Source of the DNA: Patescibacteria group bacterium
GTDB lineage: Bacteria > Patescibacteriota > Patescibacteriia > UM-FILTER-42-10
DNA length: 64,000 nucleotides
Assembly: GCA_018825385.1 (NCBI GenBank)
Contig: JAHJEX010000074.1
Coordinates: 997 to 64,996 of the forward strand
Reading direction: 5' to 3'
Under the pieces are notes generated by a model, which worked only from the letters and a program-made list of their open reading frames with translations, did no database searches and had not been told where the DNA came from. Below are positions 3,291 through 42,371 of this stretch, one piece after another. How positions within the stretch are numbered: position 1 is the first letter of the stretch; each line of letters starts with the position of its first letter. The position numbers and the translations under genes were made by a program.

Positions 3291-4670
3291 ATGAAACCAT
3301 CTGATTTTAGAGGAAAAAAAATTACAATAATGGGTCTCGGTACACTTGGGGGCGGTATTGGTGTTGTTCAATATCTAGTAAAACTTGGTGCGAAATTAAC
3401 AGTGACGGATCTGCGGATACAAAAACAGCTGGCCCCAGCACTTAAAAAAATCAAATCAAAAGGAATTATCTATGTTTTGGGAAAACACAGGGAACAGGAT
3501 TTCAAGAATGCTGACCTGATTGTTAAGAATCCAGCAGTCCCCAAAGCATCAAAATATCTTGAAATTGCAAGACAAAATAATGTACCAATAGAAAGTGATG
3601 CAACACTTTTTTTTCAGTTATGCAGGATACCGATTATAGGAGTAACAGGTACGAAAGGAAAAACAACAACTGTAGCTTTGTTAGAAAAAATTATAAAGCG
3701 ATCTGGCAGACATGTTGTTTTAGTCGGTCACAATCAAATATCTGTACTTGACCGTCTTAATCAAATAAAAAAGGATACGATTGTTTTATTTGAATTATCC
3801 AGCTGGCGATTGGAAATACTAAGAGAGCACAAACTTAGTCCTCATGGTGCCATAGTTACAAATATAGCCAAAGATCATCTCAATACTTACAGTGGGATGA
3901 GTGAATATGTAAAAGCAAAGAGTAATATTTTTGCGTTTCAGAACAAAAATGATTTCGTTGTACTAAACAAGCAAAATCCATATACACAACAATTTGGAAA
4001 GTCCGTAATTTCAAGAAGATTTTGGTTTTCAAAAGTTCCCTTCACTGAACAGAATGGAGTTTTTGTTAAAAATTCAAAGATTGTATTTAGGAATATGGGG
4101 AAGGATAACATTGTTTTATCAACAGACACGTTGAAGATAAGAGGGGAACATAATTTGGAAAATGTTTTGGCCGCTGTTTTGACTGCAAAAATTTTGCAAG
4201 TGCCCAATATTTACATTAAGTCGGCAATTGCTGAATTTTCAGGATTAACAGACAGGCTGGAATTTGTAAAGAAGTATAATGGTAAATCATTTTTTAACGA
4301 CACTGCTGCAACCATGCCGGATGCGACAATTGCTGCGCTTAAATCATTTCCTAAAAAGGTTGTTCTCATTGCCGGAGGCGTTGATAAAGAACTATCATAT
4401 TTTCAATTAGCAAATGCAATTAAAAAACACGCTCGTGTTCTTGTTTTGTTGCCAGGCAGTGCGACTGAGAAGCTTAAACTGTACTTGGACAAAAATAAAA
4501 CTAGCTACACTGAATCAAAGACTCTCCAACAAGCGGTTGAGACTGCGTATAACTTGGCAAATGAAACAGATTCGATTCTTTTTTCACCAGGTGCAGCTAG
4601 TTTCAATCTTTTTGAAAACGAATTTGATCGTGGTGAGAAGTTTAGGAAAATTGTTAAAAAACTGACATGA
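3291..4670 (+). CDS. murD: UDP-N-acetylmuramoyl-L-alanine--D-glutamate ligase.
   Basis: Mur ligase P-loop GVTGTKGKTTT. N-terminal Rossmann-like start MGLGTLGGGIG. Canonical position between mraY and ftsW. Confidence 0.85.
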   Translation: MKPSDFRGKKITIMGLGTLGGGIGVVQYLVKLGAKLTVTDLRIQKQLAPALKKIKSKGIIYVLGKHREQDFKNADLIVKNPAVPKASKYLEIARQNNVPIESDATLFFQLCRIPIIGVTGTKGKTTTVALLEKIIKRSGRHVVLVGHNQISVLDRLNQIKKDTIVLFELSSWRLEILREHKLSPHGAIVTNIAKDHLNTYSGMSEYVKAKSNIFAFQNKNDFVVLNKQNPYTQQFGKSVISRRFWFSKVPFTEQNGVFVKNSKIVFRNMGKDNIVLSTDTLKIRGEHNLENVLAAVLTAKILQVPNIYIKSAIAEFSGLTDRLEFVKKYNGKSFFNDTAATMPDATIAALKSFPKKVVLIAGGVDKELSYFQLANAIKKHARVLVLLPGSATEKLKLYLDKNKTSYTESKTLQQAVETAYNLANETDSILFSPGAASFNLFENEFDRGEKFRKIVKKLT

Positions 4671-14639: not shown

Positions 14640-15383
14640 ATGAATAAGAATACAGCAGATTCAATATTAGAAAAAGTAGCGTCCGACTATAATAACATAG
14701 CGGGCCATTTTTCCCAAACTCGGTATAGAGATTGGGCTGAGTTTTCTGATTTTGAAAAGTTTCTAAAAACAGGTGTATCGGTTCTTGATGTGGGGTGCGG
14801 TAATGGGAGGCTTCTGCATTTCCTGAACAGATACAGAGTTAAGTATGTTGGTATTGATGTGTCATCAAAATTACTAAAGATTGCCAAGCAATTAGTGGAT
14901 GAAAAAATATGCACTTCTATAACAAGCCATAGCTTCATTGAAGCTTCTGCTGAAAAGCTCCCATTTGCTGATAGAACATTCGATATTGCATTTGCAATTG
15001 CGAGTCTATATCATATTCCATCAAAAGAGCTTCGCCAACGCTCAATAAATGAAATATCACGTGTTTTAAAACCAGGCGGTGTGTTTATTATGACTTATTG
15101 GAATATGTGGGAACGATCCAGAAGGACATTGATATACAACAACATTACTGACAAACTTGTCGGCAAATCCAATCTGGATTTCTTTGATGCTAATAAACCT
15201 TGGAAAAATCCAAAAGGTCAGGTGCTTGCTGAGAGGTTTTGCCATGCCTTTACCTTAAGGGAGATTGAGAGACTGTCGAAAAAAAGTAGTTTCAGAACTG
15301 TCGATAAGTATTATATGAAAAAGGGACAAAAATCCAATTCAAAGTATGGCTTTAACGGTGTATATATAGGAAAGAAGTATTGA
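14640..15383 (+). CDS. Class I SAM-dependent methyltransferase (Methyltransf_11), Trm9/ALKBH8-MTase-like.
   Basis: YNNIAGHFSQTRYRDW, SAM motif I VLDVGCGNGRLL, post-I acidic D, AIASLYHIPS...ISRVLKPGG, TYWNMWERSRR. I recall these blocks resembling yeast Trm9. The start was set to the Met at 14640, directly abutting the divergent elp3 start. Confidence 0.65.
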   Translation: MNKNTADSILEKVASDYNNIAGHFSQTRYRDWAEFSDFEKFLKTGVSVLDVGCGNGRLLHFLNRYRVKYVGIDVSSKLLKIAKQLVDEKICTSITSHSFIEASAEKLPFADRTFDIAFAIASLYHIPSKELRQRSINEISRVLKPGGVFIMTYWNMWERSRRTLIYNNITDKLVGKSNLDFFDANKPWKNPKGQVLAERFCHAFTLREIERLSKKSSFRTVDKYYMKKGQKSNSKYGFNGVYIGKKY

Positions 15384-15408
15384 CAGAAGCCGAAAAATAT
15401 GCTAGACT
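15380..15408 (+). promoter_or_regulatory. Sigma70-type promoter (TTGACA-17-TAGACT) for the first L,D-transpeptidase gene.
   Basis: TTGACA at 15380-15385, a 17-nt spacer, TAGACT at 15403-15408. About 150 nt upstream of the ATG at 15563. Confidence 0.4.
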
Positions 15409-15562: not shown

Positions 15563-16990
15563 ATGCAAAATCACAGAGTAAAAATTAAAATTTTGGTGTT
15601 GGCAGTACTGGCAAGTACTGTTTTTTTGATACCTAAAATCGTACAAGCAACAGAGTCACGTGCACCAGAACTACGTATTTTTAATTCCAATAGCTATTCG
15701 GTCGACAAGGCATTTATGGTTTTTGATGAAAACTTTCAGGGTGGCGCATCCGTCGCGATAGGTGACCTTCAGGGAAATGGAACAAATGAAATAGTTGTTG
15801 CACCGGGTCCTGGAGGAGGTCCACACATTAAAATTTTTAAATCAGATGGAACTTTTATTTCAAGCTTTTTTGCATATACCTCTGGCTACAGGAAAGGTGT
15901 GAATATTGCAGCGGGAGATTTGGACGGAGATGGCAAGGATGAAATTATTGTTAGCACTCGTTATGGAGCAACGCCTCATGTCAGAGTTTTTGATGGCAAT
16001 GGTATTCCAAAGTTCACATGGGGATTTTTTGCATACCAAGAAAATTTCAGAGGAGGTGTAAATATTGCAGCCTGTGATGTTGACGGTGATGGAGAGAAAG
16101 AAATAGTAACAGGTGCGGGGCCGGGCGGTGGACCACATGCTCGTGTATTTGATAAAGATGGCACTTATGCGGGTCTGGATTATTTTCCGTTTGCATCAGA
16201 TTTTCGAGGAGGAATTTCTGTAACCTGTGGCAATGTAGATGGCGGTGCAGAAGAGGAGGTAATTTTTAGTGTTCAGACCTCAGATGAAGCATGGGTAAAG
16301 GTTTACAAAACAAATTCTGAGCAGACAGTCCTTGGAATGTTTCGTGCATTTCCAGAATCATTTCGTGGTGGCATAAATATAGCGAGTGGCGATGTTGATC
16401 GTGATGGGCTTGATGAGATAATTGTTGCAGCTAATACTGGCGGTGGCTCACATGTAAGATTTTTTGAGGCCTATGGTTTTCCACATCCCGATTCAATTTT
16501 TGCCTATGAAGATGAGTTCAGAGGTGGAGTCTTGGTAACAGCAGGCGATGCAAATAATGATTCTTATGATGAAGTTATCGTATCTCCAAATAGAAGATCT
16601 ACAGAAGGAAGAACTGATTTGGATAAATATATTGAAATAGATATTTCTGACCAACAATTAAACTACTATGAAAATGGGTATCTTGTTGACTCTACTCAGG
16701 TGTCTACAGGAAAGTGGTCAATGCCGACACCGTTAGGAACATTTAGCATTCAAAATAAGCATCCTCGAGCTTATTCTGCCACTTACAATTTGTACATGCC
16801 TTTCTGGATGCAGTTTGAGTCAAGGGGATATGGACTACATGAACTCCCAGAGTGGCCTAGTGGCTACAAGGAGGGTCAGGACCACTTAGGTATAAGAGTT
16901 TCACATGGTTGTGTCCGTTTAGGTGTCGGTCCAGCAGAGAAACTATATAGCTGGGCAGAAGTTGGCACTACTGTGATTGTAAAAGATTAA
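15563..16990 (+). CDS. Secreted FG-GAP/VCBS-repeat beta-propeller protein with C-terminal L,D-transpeptidase (YkuD) domain.
   Basis: Signal peptide. At least six repeats of the type GDLDGDGKDEIIV...GPGGGPHVRVF (Ca-binding DxDxDG). C-terminal LDT catalytic motif SHGCVRL. Confidence 0.75.
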   Translation: MQNHRVKIKILVLAVLASTVFLIPKIVQATESRAPELRIFNSNSYSVDKAFMVFDENFQGGASVAIGDLQGNGTNEIVVAPGPGGGPHIKIFKSDGTFISSFFAYTSGYRKGVNIAAGDLDGDGKDEIIVSTRYGATPHVRVFDGNGIPKFTWGFFAYQENFRGGVNIAACDVDGDGEKEIVTGAGPGGGPHARVFDKDGTYAGLDYFPFASDFRGGISVTCGNVDGGAEEEVIFSVQTSDEAWVKVYKTNSEQTVLGMFRAFPESFRGGINIASGDVDRDGLDEIIVAANTGGGSHVRFFEAYGFPHPDSIFAYEDEFRGGVLVTAGDANNDSYDEVIVSPNRRSTEGRTDLDKYIEIDISDQQLNYYENGYLVDSTQVSTGKWSMPTPLGTFSIQNKHPRAYSATYNLYMPFWMQFESRGYGLHELPEWPSGYKEGQDHLGIRVSHGCVRLGVGPAEKLYSWAEVGTTVIVKD

Positions 16991-17395: not shown

Positions 17396-17424
17396 TTGAC
17401 ATATCAGAAGATGTTTGATAAAAT
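17396..17424 (+). promoter_or_regulatory. Candidate sigma70 promoter TTGACA-17-TAAAAT upstream of the second small paralog.
   Basis: TTGACA at 17396-17401, a 17-nt spacer, TAAAAT at 17419-17424. This implies a ~150-nt leader. Confidence 0.3.
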
Positions 17425-22209: not shown

Positions 22210-22238
22210 TTGACACATATTCAAGGTTATGCTATACT
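22210..22238 (+). promoter_or_regulatory. Canonical sigma70 promoter TTGACA-17-TATACT driving the 22277-26603 operon.
   Basis: Perfect -35 TTGACA at 22210-22215, a 17-nt spacer, TATACT at 22233-22238. About 35 nt upstream of the ATG at 22277. Confidence 0.6.
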
Positions 22239-37076: not shown

Positions 37077-38039
37077 GAATCGGTTAATCATGCTTTCCAC
37101 TTCGAGTGCATTCTGCGCCTTCATTAATTCAATGCGCAGTTTTTTTGAATCAGTAAAGTCCGATACATAGGATGAATAGAACTTTCTAATATTGTAGAAA
37201 TTTTTTATCCCTTTGAATGTTTTTTCAAAAAGATGAGAATGCCTAATCAGAAGTTGAAGGCGATCATTATATGTTATCTGATCCGCGCTTTTTCCTGAGA
37301 AAAACCACGGATCATTCATAGCCGCTCTGCCAATCATAACACCATCAACACCAAATTCCTGTGCTTTATCCTTGGCATCCTGAATGCTTTTAACGTCGCC
37401 ATTGCCGATAAAAATCGTTTTCGGACTACTTGCTTTAACAATAGCACCGATACTTTTGATTATATCCCAGTGAGCAGGCACTTTTGACTTCTCTTTTTGC
37501 GTTCTTCCATGGATTATTAATGCTGCCGGTTTCATTTCTAATATCTTTGGAATCCACGACTTAGAAACATCCTTATTGTAACCAATTCTGGTCTTTACTG
37601 AAACAGCCATTTCACCAGCTCCATCTACAGTCGCAGTTATGATTTCCTTAGCTAATAACGGAGTCTTTATGAGGGCTGCGCCGGCACCTTGTTTTTCAAT
37701 TGCTTTGAACGGGCACCCCATATTAATATCAATACCATCAAATCCAAGTTTTTCTATTAGCTTAGCGCTTTTGTAGAAATTAGCAGGGTTGCTTCCAAAA
37801 ACCTGGGCAACAATCGGTTTCTCATTTTCATGGAATTTCAAATCATAGAGCAAACGCTTCCTGCCTGCAGAACACATTCCATCAGCTGAAACAAATTCAG
37901 TAAACATAACATCTGGACCACCACATTGTATTACCATTTGTCTATATGGAAAATCAGTTACGTCATCCATTGGTGCCATTACAAAAAATGGTCTTTTTAA
38001 GCTTTTCCAAAAGTTTCTAGTATTCTTACTATTTCGCAT
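37065..38039 (-). CDS. dus: tRNA-dihydrouridine synthase.
   Basis: FVMAPMDDVTDFPYRQ, IDINMGCP and the FMN-binding TIM-barrel pattern. The start was set to the Met at 38039 (MRNSKNT...) rather than 38099. Confidence 0.8.
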   Translation of the reverse strand: MRNSKNTRNFWKSLKRPFFVMAPMDDVTDFPYRQMVIQCGGPDVMFTEFVSADGMCSAGRKRLLYDLKFHENEKPIVAQVFGSNPANFYKSAKLIEKLGFDGIDINMGCPFKAIEKQGAGAALIKTPLLAKEIITATVDGAGEMAVSVKTRIGYNKDVSKSWIPKILEMKPAALIIHGRTQKEKSKVPAHWDIIKSIGAIVKASSPKTIFIGNGDVKSIQDAKDKAQEFGVDGVMIGRAAMNDPWFFSGKSADQITYNDRLQLLIRHSHLFEKTFKGIKNFYNIRKFYSSYVSDFTDSKKLRIELMKAQNALEVESMINRFLKQ

Positions 38040-38076
38040 ATATTGATTATAGCAGATCAAAATAAAAAGGGAGCAT

Positions 38077-38394
38077 TTAGAATCCTCCCTTCTTCGCAAG
38101 TAGAACTAGGCGGGGAAAAATGCTCCAAGTGTCAGGCTCTTCGGGCTCTGACTTGTCTTCAAGTTGTTCGGAATCCGGATGATCTTTCGCAGCATCTTCT
38201 TCAGCCATCTTCCGTGTCAGAAAGAATTCTGAGTGTAGAGTGTGATGCTCTGTACATAGCATACGAATTTCGAAGACACATAGGTATTTTCCCAGTTCCG
38301 TTGCTATTACCTCAACCACTCGGTCCTCTGATAAATATTCGAAGAGGTCCAGAATGTCCAAACAACCTAGACGTTTCGGCTTTTTTTTAGCCAT
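38077..38394 (-). CDS. Hypothetical 105-aa protein with acidic centre.
   Basis: Perfect Shine-Dalgarno TAGGAGGTGAGAC immediately 5' of the ATG on the minus strand. Chosen over the overlapping + strand ORF 38043..38390. Confidence 0.5.
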   Translation of the reverse strand: MAKKKPKRLGCLDILDLFEYLSEDRVVEVIATELGKYLCVFEIRMLCTEHHTLHSEFFLTRKMAEEDAAKDHPDSEQLEDKSEPEEPDTWSIFPRLVLLAKKGGF

Positions 38395-38478
38395 GTCTCA
38401 CCTCCTAAAATGTGCAAACGTGACTATATAAACTACTATAGTAATTCAATTTTGTCAATACTAGCTACATTTAGGTAT

Positions 38479-38635
38479 AAAAAAAGCCAGGCTGGTTAAA
38501 ACCCTGGCGTATAGTGAGAGGGGATCCGCCCGAATGTCCGTAGCGGTGCCAGGCGGCTGTTCTCTTGCCCGAATTTATGCTCGAAACCTCGAGTGTATCC
38601 CCTCAAAATGTACGGAATAAAGAACCTAAGGATAA
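38479..38635 (-). ncRNA. Unclassified structured element (~150 nt) ending in an intrinsic terminator. Either a small RNA or an attenuating leader.
   Basis: Minus-strand candidate promoter (TTGACA at 38665-38660, TATTTT at 38642-38637). GC-rich core with an 8-bp long-range stem GAGGGGAU...AUCCCCUC (38525-38518 / 38604-38597) and an internal hairpin CUCGA-GGUU-UCGAG. It ends in GCCAGG-11nt-CCTGGC plus U7 (38508-38479). I could not assign it to SRP RNA, 6S RNA or any riboswitch class by eye. Confidence 0.35.
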
Positions 38636-38749
38636 TAAAATATCATATATGCAGATCCTTGTCAAGTCCTAAGCTGAAAATTGGTTACTCAACATAATAT
38701 TCAATTAAGTGTATAATAACACCATAATTTAGAAATAAATGTATATCAT

Positions 38750-41533
38750 ATGAACAGATCACAGAGAGTAATTTTAGCAACTGTAGCTGCGATATTTGTT
38801 ATCGCTGTTTTACTTACTGGTGCAGTTAGCACTGTTACTGACTGGTTATGGTTTAGCGAGATTGGCCATCAGCAGTTATTCATCACCCCGCTTGTCGCAA
38901 AACTCTCAATGGGATTTGGTGTCGCTATTGTAGCTTTCATATTATTAATGACAATTTTCTCACTAGCCAGAAAATTTTCACCATCCTCCAAATCTTTTAA
39001 TGTTCGAATCAACACTTCGCAAGGTCCAAAAATGAAAGTGGTAGACGCGGGTCCAATTATTCGACGAATTACTGCTCCCATAGTGGCTATTCTTTCAGTT
39101 ATCACTGGAATTATAGCAGCGACAAATTGGGAAACAGTGCTTCTTTATTTTAACAGTACTTCTTTTAATTCTGTTGACCCACTATTTCAGAAGGATATTT
39201 CCTACTATTTTTTCTCTCTTCCCTTTATTGAACTGATATTGAACTTCTCTGTAGGGATCGTACTTGTTGGAATTATCGGATCATTTGTCATTTATCTTTC
39301 ATTGGGAGTGGTGCAGCTGAGAGGAGGGTTGCGCAATTTATTTAGAACTACTGGCCCAAGTATTGTACATGCGGCAAAAAGATTTATTTCTATTCTTTTG
39401 GCAATTTTATTCTTCATCATTGCTGCCAAAACATACTTCATAGAAATGCCGTCTTTGCTTTACAGCACGACTGGATCATTCTTAGGCGCTGGTTATACTG
39501 ATATTCACATTACAGTCCCCATATTGCAAATTTCAGCTATTGTAGCGCTTCTGGTAGGACTACTGCTACTCATACATGCGTTCAAAAGTGTGACAAGAAT
39601 GGTCACATCAGGCATTACTATTTATTTATTAATAGTGATTGTAGGCGGTTGGGCAATTCCTGGAATTGTGCAAAGATTTATTGTTCTTCCAAACGAACTT
39701 GTAAAAGAAACGCCATATATCGAACACAATATAGCTGCAACTCAGAAAGCGTATGGAATTGATAAGGTTGAGAAAAGAGATCTGACGGGGGAAACTACTT
39801 TAACAAATGAAGATATACAAAACAATCAACTAACTATTCAAAACATTCGGCTATGGGACCGTGAACCGTTGTTGGACACATTCAGTCAGTTGCAGGAAAT
39901 ACGAACGTATTATGATTTTGTTTCAGTAGATAATGATCGATACATTATCGACGGAAATTTGCGACAAATTTTGTTGTCTGTGCGCGAGTTAAATGCTGCT
40001 AATCTCCCCCAGAGGAACTTTATCAATGAGCATTTAACATTTACACACGGGTACGGTTTAACAGTTAGTCCGGTAAATGAAGTTACTCCCGAGGGTTTAC
40101 CCGTGCTATTTGTAAAAGACCTGCCTCCAGAATCCTCACTGGCTGAACTGAAAATTGAAACGCCAGAAATTTACTATGGTGAGTTGGCAAATGACTACGT
40201 AATTGTAAACTCAGACGCGAACGAATTCGACTACCCTTCTGGTGAGGAAAATGTATATTCGAATTACACAGGCAACGGGGGGGTTGAAATGTCATCTATG
40301 CTAAATAAATTACTATTTGCACTAAGATTCAAGTCAACAAAGTTGTTTTTGTCTGATGATATTAACAACGAATCTCGTCTGATGATGTATCGTGATATAG
40401 ATCAGCGCGTTAGAAAAGTAGCTCCATTTTTAAAGTTTGATTTAGATCCATATTTGATTATTTCTGAAAGTGGAAATTTGGTTTGGATGTATGATGCATA
40501 TACAACAAGTGACAGATATCCGTATGCAGAGAGAGTTTCAGACCAACGCCTAAAAGACTACACTACTGATGAAACGCCGTTTGCAGACTCAAAGCTGAAT
40601 TACATAAGAAACTCCGTAAAGATCACAATTGATGCTTATACAGGAAAAATGCAGCTTTATGTTTCAGACCCTAACGATCCTATAATTCAGACATATCAGA
40701 AAGTGTTCCCAGAAACTTTCAAGTCGCTTAATGAGATGCCACAAGATCTAAGAGACCATATTCGATATCCAGAGGATTTATTTGTCTTCCAAACAAATTT
40801 ATATTCTGTTTACCACATGGATGACCCGCAGATTTTCTATAATAAAGAAGATCAATGGCAAATCCCCATTAAGCCAGGAAAGGATACTTCTGATCCAATG
40901 ATGCGTCATATGATTATGAAGCTGCCGGAAGAAGAAAAAGAAGAGTTTATACTAATGTTGCCGTTTACACCAAGGGGCAAGGACAATCTGGCTGCGTGGA
41001 TGGTTGTTAGAAATGACAATGAGCATTACGGACAGATAGTTGTGTATAGATTTCCAAAACAGAAACTTGTATTTGGACCTCAGCAGATTATGAACAGAAT
41101 TAATCAGGACCCCGATATTTCAAGACAGATTTCGCTTTGGGACCAAAGAGGATCGCAGGTTGTAGCGGGAAATTTGCTGGTAATTCCTATTGAAGGGTCT
41201 CTGATCTATGTTCAACCAATATATATTCGTGCAGAAGGTGGAAGGATTCCTGAGCTTAAACGCGTAATTGTTGCATATGAAAACAGAATTGCAATGGAAA
41301 CAACATTGGAACAAGCATTAGCAAGATTGTTTGGTGAAATTGACGAAAACTCAGACCAAACAATTACCGCACCGACTGTTGACACCCAGGAATCTGATGA
41401 AAACCTTCTACAGCAGGCAACAGATCTATACAACTCTGCACTGGAAGCTCAAAGGGGCGGTGATTGGACGACATACGGTACGAAAATTGATCAACTCGGA
41501 AGCGTACTTAATAAACTACTACTAGAACAATAA
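38750..41533 (+). CDS. UPF0182-family large membrane protein (COG1615).
   Basis: 927 aa. The N-terminus TDWLWFSEIGHQQLF followed by ~7 TM helices and a large extracytoplasmic domain is typical of UPF0182. Confidence 0.7.
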   Translation: MNRSQRVILATVAAIFVIAVLLTGAVSTVTDWLWFSEIGHQQLFITPLVAKLSMGFGVAIVAFILLMTIFSLARKFSPSSKSFNVRINTSQGPKMKVVDAGPIIRRITAPIVAILSVITGIIAATNWETVLLYFNSTSFNSVDPLFQKDISYYFFSLPFIELILNFSVGIVLVGIIGSFVIYLSLGVVQLRGGLRNLFRTTGPSIVHAAKRFISILLAILFFIIAAKTYFIEMPSLLYSTTGSFLGAGYTDIHITVPILQISAIVALLVGLLLLIHAFKSVTRMVTSGITIYLLIVIVGGWAIPGIVQRFIVLPNELVKETPYIEHNIAATQKAYGIDKVEKRDLTGETTLTNEDIQNNQLTIQNIRLWDREPLLDTFSQLQEIRTYYDFVSVDNDRYIIDGNLRQILLSVRELNAANLPQRNFINEHLTFTHGYGLTVSPVNEVTPEGLPVLFVKDLPPESSLAELKIETPEIYYGELANDYVIVNSDANEFDYPSGEENVYSNYTGNGGVEMSSMLNKLLFALRFKSTKLFLSDDINNESRLMMYRDIDQRVRKVAPFLKFDLDPYLIISESGNLVWMYDAYTTSDRYPYAERVSDQRLKDYTTDETPFADSKLNYIRNSVKITIDAYTGKMQLYVSDPNDPIIQTYQKVFPETFKSLNEMPQDLRDHIRYPEDLFVFQTNLYSVYHMDDPQIFYNKEDQWQIPIKPGKDTSDPMMRHMIMKLPEEEKEEFILMLPFTPRGKDNLAAWMVVRNDNEHYGQIVVYRFPKQKLVFGPQQIMNRINQDPDISRQISLWDQRGSQVVAGNLLVIPIEGSLIYVQPIYIRAEGGRIPELKRVIVAYENRIAMETTLEQALARLFGEIDENSDQTITAPTVDTQESDENLLQQATDLYNSALEAQRGGDWTTYGTKIDQLGSVLNKLLLEQ

Positions 41534-41534
41534 A

Positions 41535-42371
41535 GTGACGCAATATTACAATCCTCATCGTACAAAATACTTATTTGATCCTAAATCCAAAACCCCATTT
41601 AATCTGAGCCGGTCTAAAATTGATTTGTTTATAGCATGCCCTAGATGTTTCTATTTGGATAGACGGTTGGGCGTCGGAAGGCCACCCGGATTTCCGTTCA
41701 ATCTGAACTCCGCAGTAGATACTTTGCTGAAAAAGGAATTCGATATACATCGTGCTAAAGGCACTCCGCATCCATTTATGAAATCGTATGGAATTGATGC
41801 CATCCCGTTTGCTCATCAGGATATTGACCATTGGCGAAATGCATTGAGAGGGGGAGTAGCTTACTTACATAAATCAACAAATTTCATGGTGAAGGGTGCT
41901 ATTGATGATCTCTGGATTAATACTAAAGAAGAGTTGCTAGTTGTTGACTACAAGGCAACCTCAAAAGAGGGAGAAATTTCGATTGATGCTGAATGGCAGG
42001 AGAGTTATAAGCGCCAAATGGAAATTTATCAGTGGCTTTTGAGAAGAAATGGATTTAGTGTCTCTGATACTGGCTATTTTGTATATTGCAATGGCAAGAC
42101 TGATAAACAAGCTTTTGATCAAAAACTTGAGTTTGAGGTTTTTCTTTTGCCATATACAGGTAATGATTCCTGGGTAGAAACCGCAATTACAGAAGCACAT
42201 CAGTGCCTATCAACCAATGTACTACCCGAAGCAAATATGGATTGCGACTATTGTCGATATCGTGATGCAGTCATTAAGGTTACACCAAGGACTAATAAGA
42301 AAAGAATTACGCAAACTAAGAATAAAACCGCCAGGAAAAAGCCAACGTCAAAGAATGCAACATTATTTTAG
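41535..42371 (+). CDS. PD-(D/E)XK nuclease with Cys cluster (Cas4/RecB-like, DUF83-type).
   Basis: N-terminal CPRC, catalytic-type block IDDLWINTKEELLVVDYK (D...E.K), and C-terminal C...CDYC cysteines consistent with an Fe-S cluster. Confidence 0.65.
   Translation: MTQYYNPHRTKYLFDPKSKTPFNLSRSKIDLFIACPRCFYLDRRLGVGRPPGFPFNLNSAVDTLLKKEFDIHRAKGTPHPFMKSYGIDAIPFAHQDIDHWRNALRGGVAYLHKSTNFMVKGAIDDLWINTKEELLVVDYKATSKEGEISIDAEWQESYKRQMEIYQWLLRRNGFSVSDTGYFVYCNGKTDKQAFDQKLEFEVFLLPYTGNDSWVETAITEAHQCLSTNVLPEANMDCDYCRYRDAVIKVTPRTNKKRITQTKNKTARKKPTSKNATLF

Follow-up and report, generated by a model that had tools for sequence, protein, structure and literature searches.

A candidate protein-binding small RNA with a covarying rod-shaped hairpin, encoded between dus and a divergent UPF0182 gene in Patescibacteria

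Introduction

In a 64-kb stretch of DNA (hereafter the window) from a metagenome-assembled Patescibacteria (CPR) genome, a GC-rich patch on the minus strand probably constitutes an independently transcribed gene for a protein-binding, trans-acting small non-coding RNA of ~150 nt. Its core is a rod-shaped hairpin of 87 nt, the lower part of which is maintained by compensatory changes among seven lineages. A near-consensus promoter precedes the rod, and an intrinsic terminator follows it. We infer the transcription, the abundance and the protein binding of this RNA from the comparison of sequences.

To our knowledge, the Patescibacteria, which have tiny genomes, offer almost no experimentally studied regulatory RNAs. 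With the element described here, a specific and hitherto undescribed candidate for a protein-binding RNA becomes available in this group, and its characterization corrects the reading of a GC-rich patch in front of a tRNA-modification gene as a riboswitch. As a by-product, the analysis indicates that in this clade the gene for tRNA-dihydrouridine synthase (dus) is leaderless and has a promoter with an extended −10. For now, the impact of the finding is modest, given that the family is narrow and was found in seven lineages. In the following, we describe the locus, the structure of the element and its transcription signals, and discuss what kind of RNA it may be.

The locus and its relatives

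The element stands out by its composition: between 38500 and 38599 the GC content is 0.57, compared to 0.27–0.32 in the flanks. A GC-rich patch in an AT-rich gap was also what a first-pass annotation, based on the letters of the DNA, had described, and all of its coordinates agree with a minus-strand reading of 38300–38800. Next to the patch lie a 105-aa open reading frame (ORF) and the gene for the Dus-family tRNA-dihydrouridine synthase, and divergently from these, on the plus strand and with its start at 38750, the gene for a 927-aa UPF0182 membrane protein, whose nearest named relative is a Kerfeldbacteria protein (63% identity). Nearly all other genes of the window are on the plus strand, which makes the small RNA gene, the 105-aa gene and dus an isolated minus-strand island. 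The UPF0182 promoter, which stands back to back with that of the small RNA (Table 1), falls in a region of high conservation in the homologue alignments. Throughout the 64 kb, no tRNA, no tmRNA and no Rfam family scored at the gathering level. Copies of the locus identical to the window are present in the metagenome-assembled genome (MAG) GCA_018813665.1 and in several metagenome assemblies. Directly 3' of UPF0182, at 41535–42371 on the plus strand, the window also encodes a PD-(D/E)XK protein, which keeps this position in all close relatives and bears a weak, sub-cut-off similarity to Cas4 and to the AddA/RecB nuclease domain.

To find homologues of the element, we turned to contigs with genes for relatives of the three proteins encoded next to it. 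This yielded seven distinct versions of the element, namely that of the window and those of the lineages L001, L008, L010, L011, L013 and L033, and every one of them sits between dus and the divergent UPF0182 gene, on the dus strand. The UPF0182 proteins of L001, L008, L010, L011 and L013 are 69–84% identical to that of the window. For L033, the identities are 63% for Dus and 59% for the N-terminus of UPF0182; this homologue, which had not gone into the first covariance model, came to light solely through that model (33 bits, E 2e-7), and its sequence conforms to the same basal helix. With both covariance models, the element was found neither at the syntenic positions of the Kerfeldbacteria contig L015, where four genes separate dus from UPF0182 and only a promoter lies upstream of the homologous 97-aa ORF and dus, nor around UPF0182 in the more distant Patescibacteria L016–L018.

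Larger collections were scanned with exact patterns. Among 185,579 species genomes, two Patescibacteria MAGs of the L010 and L011 lineages matched, each once and at the syntenic site, along with one chance hit that the covariance model rejects. The JGI metagenomes gave three known lineages and seven chance hits, again rejected by the model, and viral contigs gave no match. As far as scans with exact patterns can tell, the family has a narrow distribution and occurs as a single copy. A repeated palindrome of the MITE/REP type is ruled out by the single copy and the syntenic position. Since the element was never found away from dus among the seven lineages, the RNA may be functionally tied to this gene.

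Two further RNAs came to light near UPF0182 in distant relatives. In L018 (Nomurabacteria CP060223.1), at ~3690–3913 on the strand opposite UPF0182, we noticed a GC-rich structured RNA candidate of ~190 nt. It has a promoter of the form TTGACG-17-TAGCTT (preceded by TG) and a strong terminator, and the pairing of GGGAUGG with CCGUCCC closes its rod of 140 nt. The distance from this promoter to the ATG of UPF0182 is ~88 nt, and the two stand back to back as they do in the window; the fold of the candidate has a z-score of −4.1, and Rfam holds no match to it. We rejected it as a homologue of the window element, as there is no convincing alignment and no model match. Furthermore, an RNase P RNA gene (RF00010) is located ~1.1–1.2 kb downstream of UPF0182 in L017 (7880–8358, 194 bits) and L018 (7983–8395, 165 bits).

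Table 1. Features of the small RNA locus; positions refer to the window unless a lineage is named.
Feature	Positions	Strand	Basis or remark
UPF0182 divergent promoter, TCAACA-17-TATAAT	38689–38717	+	Promoter scan; in a highly conserved region
Small RNA −35 hexamer, TTGACA	38660–38665	−	Promoter scan; invariant in 7 of 7 homologues
Small RNA extended −10, TGATATTTT, consensus TGnTAnnnT	38637–38645	−	Promoter scan
Predicted 5' leader, ~26 nt	38605–38630	−	Poorly conserved; no sequence conservation in the alignment
Rod-shaped hairpin, 87 nt, conserved core	38518–38604	−	Fold and covariance model R1
Basal helix, 5' strand, GAGGGGAUACACUCGAGGUUUCG	38582–38604	−	Alignment, covariation
Apical part of the rod	38541–38581	−	Comparison of homologues; sequence and length vary by lineage
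Basal helix, 3' strand, CGGACAUUCGGGCGGAUCCCCUC	38518–38540	−	Alignment, covariation
Intrinsic terminator: GCCAGG, 11-nt loop, CCUGGC, U7	38479–38508	−	Fold, −11.2 kcal/mol
Promoter of the 105-aa gene, TTGACA, 17-nt spacer, TAGTTT	38430–38458	−	Between terminator and gene
105-aa ORF, strong Shine-Dalgarno	38077–38394	−	Neighbour, not part of the RNA
dus promoter, TGCTATAAT, 6 nt, ATG	38037–38054	−	Arrangement in 6 of 7 lineages
ORF family of 97–108 aa	Window 38077–38394; L001 6001–6327; L008 2320–2643; L015 1096–1389	− (window)	

The rod and its basal helix

The 87-nt hairpin folds with a minimum free energy of −35 kcal/mol (z = −3.5), which none of 200 shuffled sequences equalled, and the covariance model R1 recovers it with 81 bits and finds no second copy in the window. 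It is closed by the pairing of GAGGGGAU (38604–38597) with AUCCCCUC (38525–38518), the same 8-bp terminal helix that had been recognized at first pass. The internal hairpins that the first-pass annotation had placed inside this helix did not survive the comparison, in which all seven sequences form one continuous, unbranched rod of 87–102 nt. The internal loops of the rod measure 1–6 nt, and in L010 and L011 it is near-perfect, with helices of 40–45 bp that would be expected to be substrates of RNase III.

In the seven-sequence alignment, the consensus structure is made up of the lower 18 pairs of the rod. Within this basal helix, 94.4% of the cells form standard pairs, and a shift of the 3' partner by 1–3 columns lowers this to 36–51%. 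Seven of the 18 pairs, in 12 cells, have changed on both sides, which bears out the covariation that the first-pass annotation had suggested looking for in related genomes; the covariation score was reached in none of 500 column shuffles, a statistic limited by its basis of seven sequences from one narrow clade. The outer helix illustrates the compensation, with GAGGGGA/UCCCCUC in the window versus UUGGGGA/UCCCCAA in L001 and L008. Given the z-score of the fold, the rarity of the promoter described below and the compensatory conservation in six other lineages, the hairpin of the window is more than a product of chance.

The basal helix is also conserved in sequence, in the form of ACU.G..G.U..G on its 5' strand and of CGG and GG on its 3' strand, together with small conserved bulges. 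Two U·G wobble pairs are invariant (alignment columns 18/94 and 25/86) and lie 7 bp apart, and three G-C or C-G pairs are invariant as well; between them are pairs that covary freely (U-A/C-G, A-U/U-A and C-G/U-A). Above the basal helix, the rod extends in every lineage, with differing sequence and length: one strand of the basal helix is separated from the other by 39 nt in the window and by 53 nt in L011 and L013. The comparison indicates that selection is on the lower ~18–20 bp of the rod and that the apex is free to change.

A local hairpin of CUCGA and UCGAG was considered and rejected: 77% of its cells are paired, with no compensatory pairs and a result no better than that of shuffles. 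This hairpin (CUCGA-GGUU-UCGAG) was thereby also discarded as a D-arm-like mimic of a tRNA or Dus substrate; its GG/UU loop is missing in L010, L011, L013 and L033.

Several observations bear on the strand. Roughly one in four paired cells of the pair table is G·U, which would be C·A on the opposite strand; in each of the seven lineages, the fold of the dus strand is more stable than that of its complement, by 3.3–10.1 kcal/mol; and the covariance model assigns 81–87 bits to the sense versus 10–13 bits to the antisense direction. The promoter and the U-tract agree with the minus strand as the RNA strand. On the plus strand, the element would lie upstream of the UPF0182 promoter and outside the UPF0182 transcript. 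Fold energy, model scores, promoter and U-tract thus all favour the minus-strand RNA that had been proposed at first pass.

Promoter, leader and terminator

The −35 hexamer TTGACA at 38665–38660 had been picked out as a candidate promoter before. It is indeed present and is followed, after a 17-nt spacer, by TATTTT (38642–38637) with TG in front, that is, by an extended −10. The arrangement is conserved, with ATGMTA located exactly 13 nt past the −35 (TTGACA-N13-ATGMTA) in all seven homologues. It is also rare: the pattern TTGACA-N14-TGnTAnnnT occurs four times in the 64 kb, compared to an expectation of 0.06, which places the small RNA promoter among the best matches of the window. The only three other perfect sites are on the plus strand, at 15380–15408, 17396–17424 and 22210–22238, the first two of which precede AT-rich leaders of ~150 nt without obvious structure, in front of ORFs at 15563 and 17584.

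From this promoter, transcription is predicted to start near 38630. The resulting 5' leader region folds into a small hairpin in L010, L011, L013 and L033, and the leaders of L001 and L008 are U-rich and single-stranded in their folds. The RNA would measure ~150 nt in the window genome and ~120–135 nt in its relatives. It appears to be non-coding, since the homologues differ by indels whose lengths are not divisible by three, which argues against a conserved ORF; two short frames, one of 38 codons that begins with UUG (minus strand) and one of 29 codons (plus strand), were rejected as not conserved by eye.

The window RNA ends at a terminator built of GCCAGG (38508–38503), CCUGGC (38491–38486) and a run of seven U (38485–38479), with a GC-rich 6-bp stem (z = −2.7; for its energy, see Table 1). 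Stem, loop and U7 are all in place at the site where a clean intrinsic terminator had been annotated at first pass; a simple terminator scan missed it because of the 11-nt loop. A 9-nt linker separates it from the rod. L001 and L008 have a terminator of 9 bp with a UGCG loop and compensatory changes. In L010, L011, L013 and L033, a U-run follows directly after the rod, so that the rod itself is the terminator, and it ends 10–45 nt before the dus ATG. The group of the window, L001 and L008 has lost the U-run of the rod and has its separate terminator ~10 nt further downstream, and the rod was kept nevertheless. This suggests that the rod is selected for something besides termination.

The 105-aa gene and dus have promoters of their own

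Downstream of the terminator, at a distance of 84 nt, the 105-aa ORF begins at 38394 behind AGGAGGTGA, much as anticipated in the first-pass annotation, which had put it at about 85 nt and noted its perfect Shine-Dalgarno sequence. Its promoter (Table 1) is conserved in −35, spacing and TAnnnT −10 in the three lineages that have the gene, i.e. the window, L001 and L008. The remaining four lineages with the RNA (L010, L011, L013 and L033) lack the gene, and the Kerfeldbacteria contig L015 has a homologue of the gene without the RNA upstream; the presence of the RNA therefore does not track that of the 105-aa gene.

The ORFs of 97–108 aa upstream of dus appear to represent a real but orphan protein family. 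It consists of a single homologue cluster among 5.8 billion proteins, plus the homologue on the Kerfeldbacteria contig, and its members share the motifs HS..FLTR, KDHP and WS.FPRL. No Pfam or NCBIfam family matches the 105-aa protein, and its AlphaFold model is unusable (pLDDT 44.5).

For dus, the pattern TGnTATAAT-N6-ATG is found in the window, L001, L008, L010, L011 and L013, and in these six of the seven lineages the gene appears to be leaderless with an extended −10. Because TGnTATAAT is exactly 6 nt in front of this ATG, the true start of dus in the window appears to be at 38039 and not at the upstream TTG at 38099. L033 is the exception: 10 nt separate the end of its U-run from the dus ATG, a good −10 for a leaderless start cannot be seen there, and dus could depend on read-through.

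Proposed mode of action

We propose that a near-consensus promoter of the sigma-70 type with an extended −10 would drive transcription of a short 5' leader, followed by the unbranched rod of 87–102 nt, which would be closed by the pairing of both ends; transcription would stop at the intrinsic terminator, and the presumably strongly expressed RNA would bind a protein partner in trans via its structure-specific basal helix. All conserved nucleotides are inside the basal double helix, and neither the 5' leader nor the apical loop is conserved. It is this conserved basal helix, combined with a free apex and the absence of a conserved single-stranded stretch, that points to a protein-binding, trans-acting RNA. 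By analogy, invariant wobbles, small bulges and a free apex would be expected where a protein recognizes an RNA by its structure. Examples of such recognition are the G3·U70 identity pair of tRNA-Ala and the Ro-binding stem of Y RNAs.

The neighbouring genes, which encode an ABC transporter, a HAMP-like protein, the PD-(D/E)XK nuclease, UPF0182, Dus, glycosyltransferases and ribosomal proteins, yielded no candidate for the partner. A more specific proposal, to which we give little credence, is that of an abundant lineage-specific RNA whose U·G-marked helix is bound by a partner tied to the fixed neighbours. The RNA could then possibly be a decoy, a regulator or a dihydrouridine-modified substrate of the downstream Dus; alternatively, it could possibly be a partner of the UPF0182 membrane protein, with which its gene shares the back-to-back promoters. 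If this specific proposal were true, the RNA would represent a new class of ribonucleoprotein in the reduced-genome CPR bacteria.

Alternative explanations

The first-pass annotation had left two readings side by side, a stand-alone small RNA and a termination-based leader of the 105-aa gene and dus. The former is favoured by what we found in silico: a conserved promoter and a terminator of its own, downstream genes that are separately promoted, a structure with compensatory changes and no match in Rfam. The leader reading, according to which a signal sensed by the RNA in cis would set the choice between stop and read-through into the 105-aa gene and dus, draws on the constant orientation and position of the element, directly in front of dus or of the 105-aa/dus pair, on the proximity of rod and U-run to the dus ATG in L010, L011, L013 and L033 and on the L033 dus gene, which has no obvious leaderless −10. 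In the window, moreover, the sequence CCUGGC at 38551–38546 repeats the 3' half of the terminator and could pair with its 5' half as an antiterminator. This repeat, however, is confined to the window and is lost in L001 and L008, and L010, L011, L013 and L033 do not even have a separate terminator; hence there is no conserved antiterminator pairing. An attenuator would also require that no promoter intervenes, whereas here the 105-aa gene has a conserved promoter behind the terminator, and dus has one 6 nt before its ATG in six of the seven lineages, L033 being the one ambiguous case. Since, in addition, the rod is a plain helix without an aptamer-like junction or pocket and without an Rfam riboswitch match at E ≤ 10, and since nothing of this kind precedes the 97-aa gene and dus of Kerfeldbacteria, we consider the leader reading unlikely.

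It is more doubtful still that the element acts merely as a long transcription terminator or insulator, or as a palindrome at the DNA level, and gives rise to no functional RNA product. The four lineages with a U-run directly after the rod do suggest that the rod terminates transcription, and an insulator would suit the position immediately in front of a leaderless promoter, which might have to be shielded. Yet such an element would not need a dedicated near-consensus promoter with the RNA as its only product, nor would the rod have to be retained in the window, L001 and L008, where another hairpin terminates. The primary sequence of the stem is conserved although termination does not need this, and the invariant U·G pairs and the strand asymmetry indicate selection on RNA rather than on duplex DNA. 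If the product is an RNA, it might instead regulate mRNAs elsewhere in trans by base-pairing through its 5' leader or apical loop. Such RNAs typically have this stand-alone architecture from promoter to terminator, and the U-rich single-stranded leaders of L001 and L008 would be suited to pairing; still, leader and apical loop are precisely the parts that vary, the conserved nucleotides being all in the helix, and the complementarity to the translation starts of dus and UPF0182 is no better than that to shuffled targets (z from −1.9 to +1.0). We therefore see only a small chance for such a base-pairing regulator. A resemblance of the 3' strand of the rod to the 5' end of dus, seen in L010 and L011, was rejected because it fails in the other lineages.

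Comparison with known RNA families

At first pass, no known class could be fitted to the element by eye, and the database comparison led to the same result: Rfam 15 gave no match at gathering score in the whole window, and a search at E ≤ 10 with the element and four homologous loci returned noise only. Our search of the literature on non-coding RNAs, 6S RNA and SRP RNA in CPR/Patescibacteria produced nothing relevant. The sequence UGGCACCGC resembles a T-box, but this resemblance was dismissed, as it is found in the window only and partly in L001, and as Rfam shows no T-box match.

One might still suspect a highly divergent housekeeping RNA of the SRP/4.5S, 6S or Y type that Rfam misses in CPR genomes. 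An end-closed rod of ~100 nt behind a very strong promoter has the general look of 4.5S and Y RNAs, and a conserved base with a variable apex is reminiscent of Y RNA. Nonetheless, we regard this as highly improbable. No homologue among the four searched comes close to these families even at the permissive threshold, and the element is confined to one small clade, whereas housekeeping RNAs are universal. The apex of SRP RNA bears the universally conserved Ffh-binding motif; in the present rod, the apex is the least conserved part, with no loop motif common to the lineages and no SRP helix-8 motif (a GNRA loop with symmetric and asymmetric loops), and neither RF00169 nor RF01854 gives a match. 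6S RNA is a rod of ~150–200 nt with a large central bubble, which the shorter rod described here (87–102 nt) does not have, and its model RF00013 does not match either.

Attenuators and riboswitch leaders resemble the element in being structured, GC-rich RNAs with a terminator, co-oriented upstream of coding genes. They differ from it in that both downstream genes here have promoters in front, and in that the element neither matches a known class nor contains a multi-helix aptamer or a conserved alternative pairing.

The closest architectural analogy, summarized as 'conserved base, variable apex', would be Y RNA, with its conserved, bulged basal stem and variable apical part. Like Y RNA, the element is a rod formed by the pairing of its 5' and 3' ends; unlike it, the element has no Rfam match, and in the immediate surroundings of the locus there is no rsr/TROVE (Ro) gene among its neighbours. 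With the generic trans-encoded small RNAs, the element shares its intergenic position, its own promoter and intrinsic terminator, its length of 120–150 nt, its non-coding nature and its single copy. It differs from them in that its conserved part is double-stranded, not a single-stranded seed, and in that its sequence matches no described family. Judged by these sequence features, the element is best filed as a new family among the stand-alone bacterial small RNAs.
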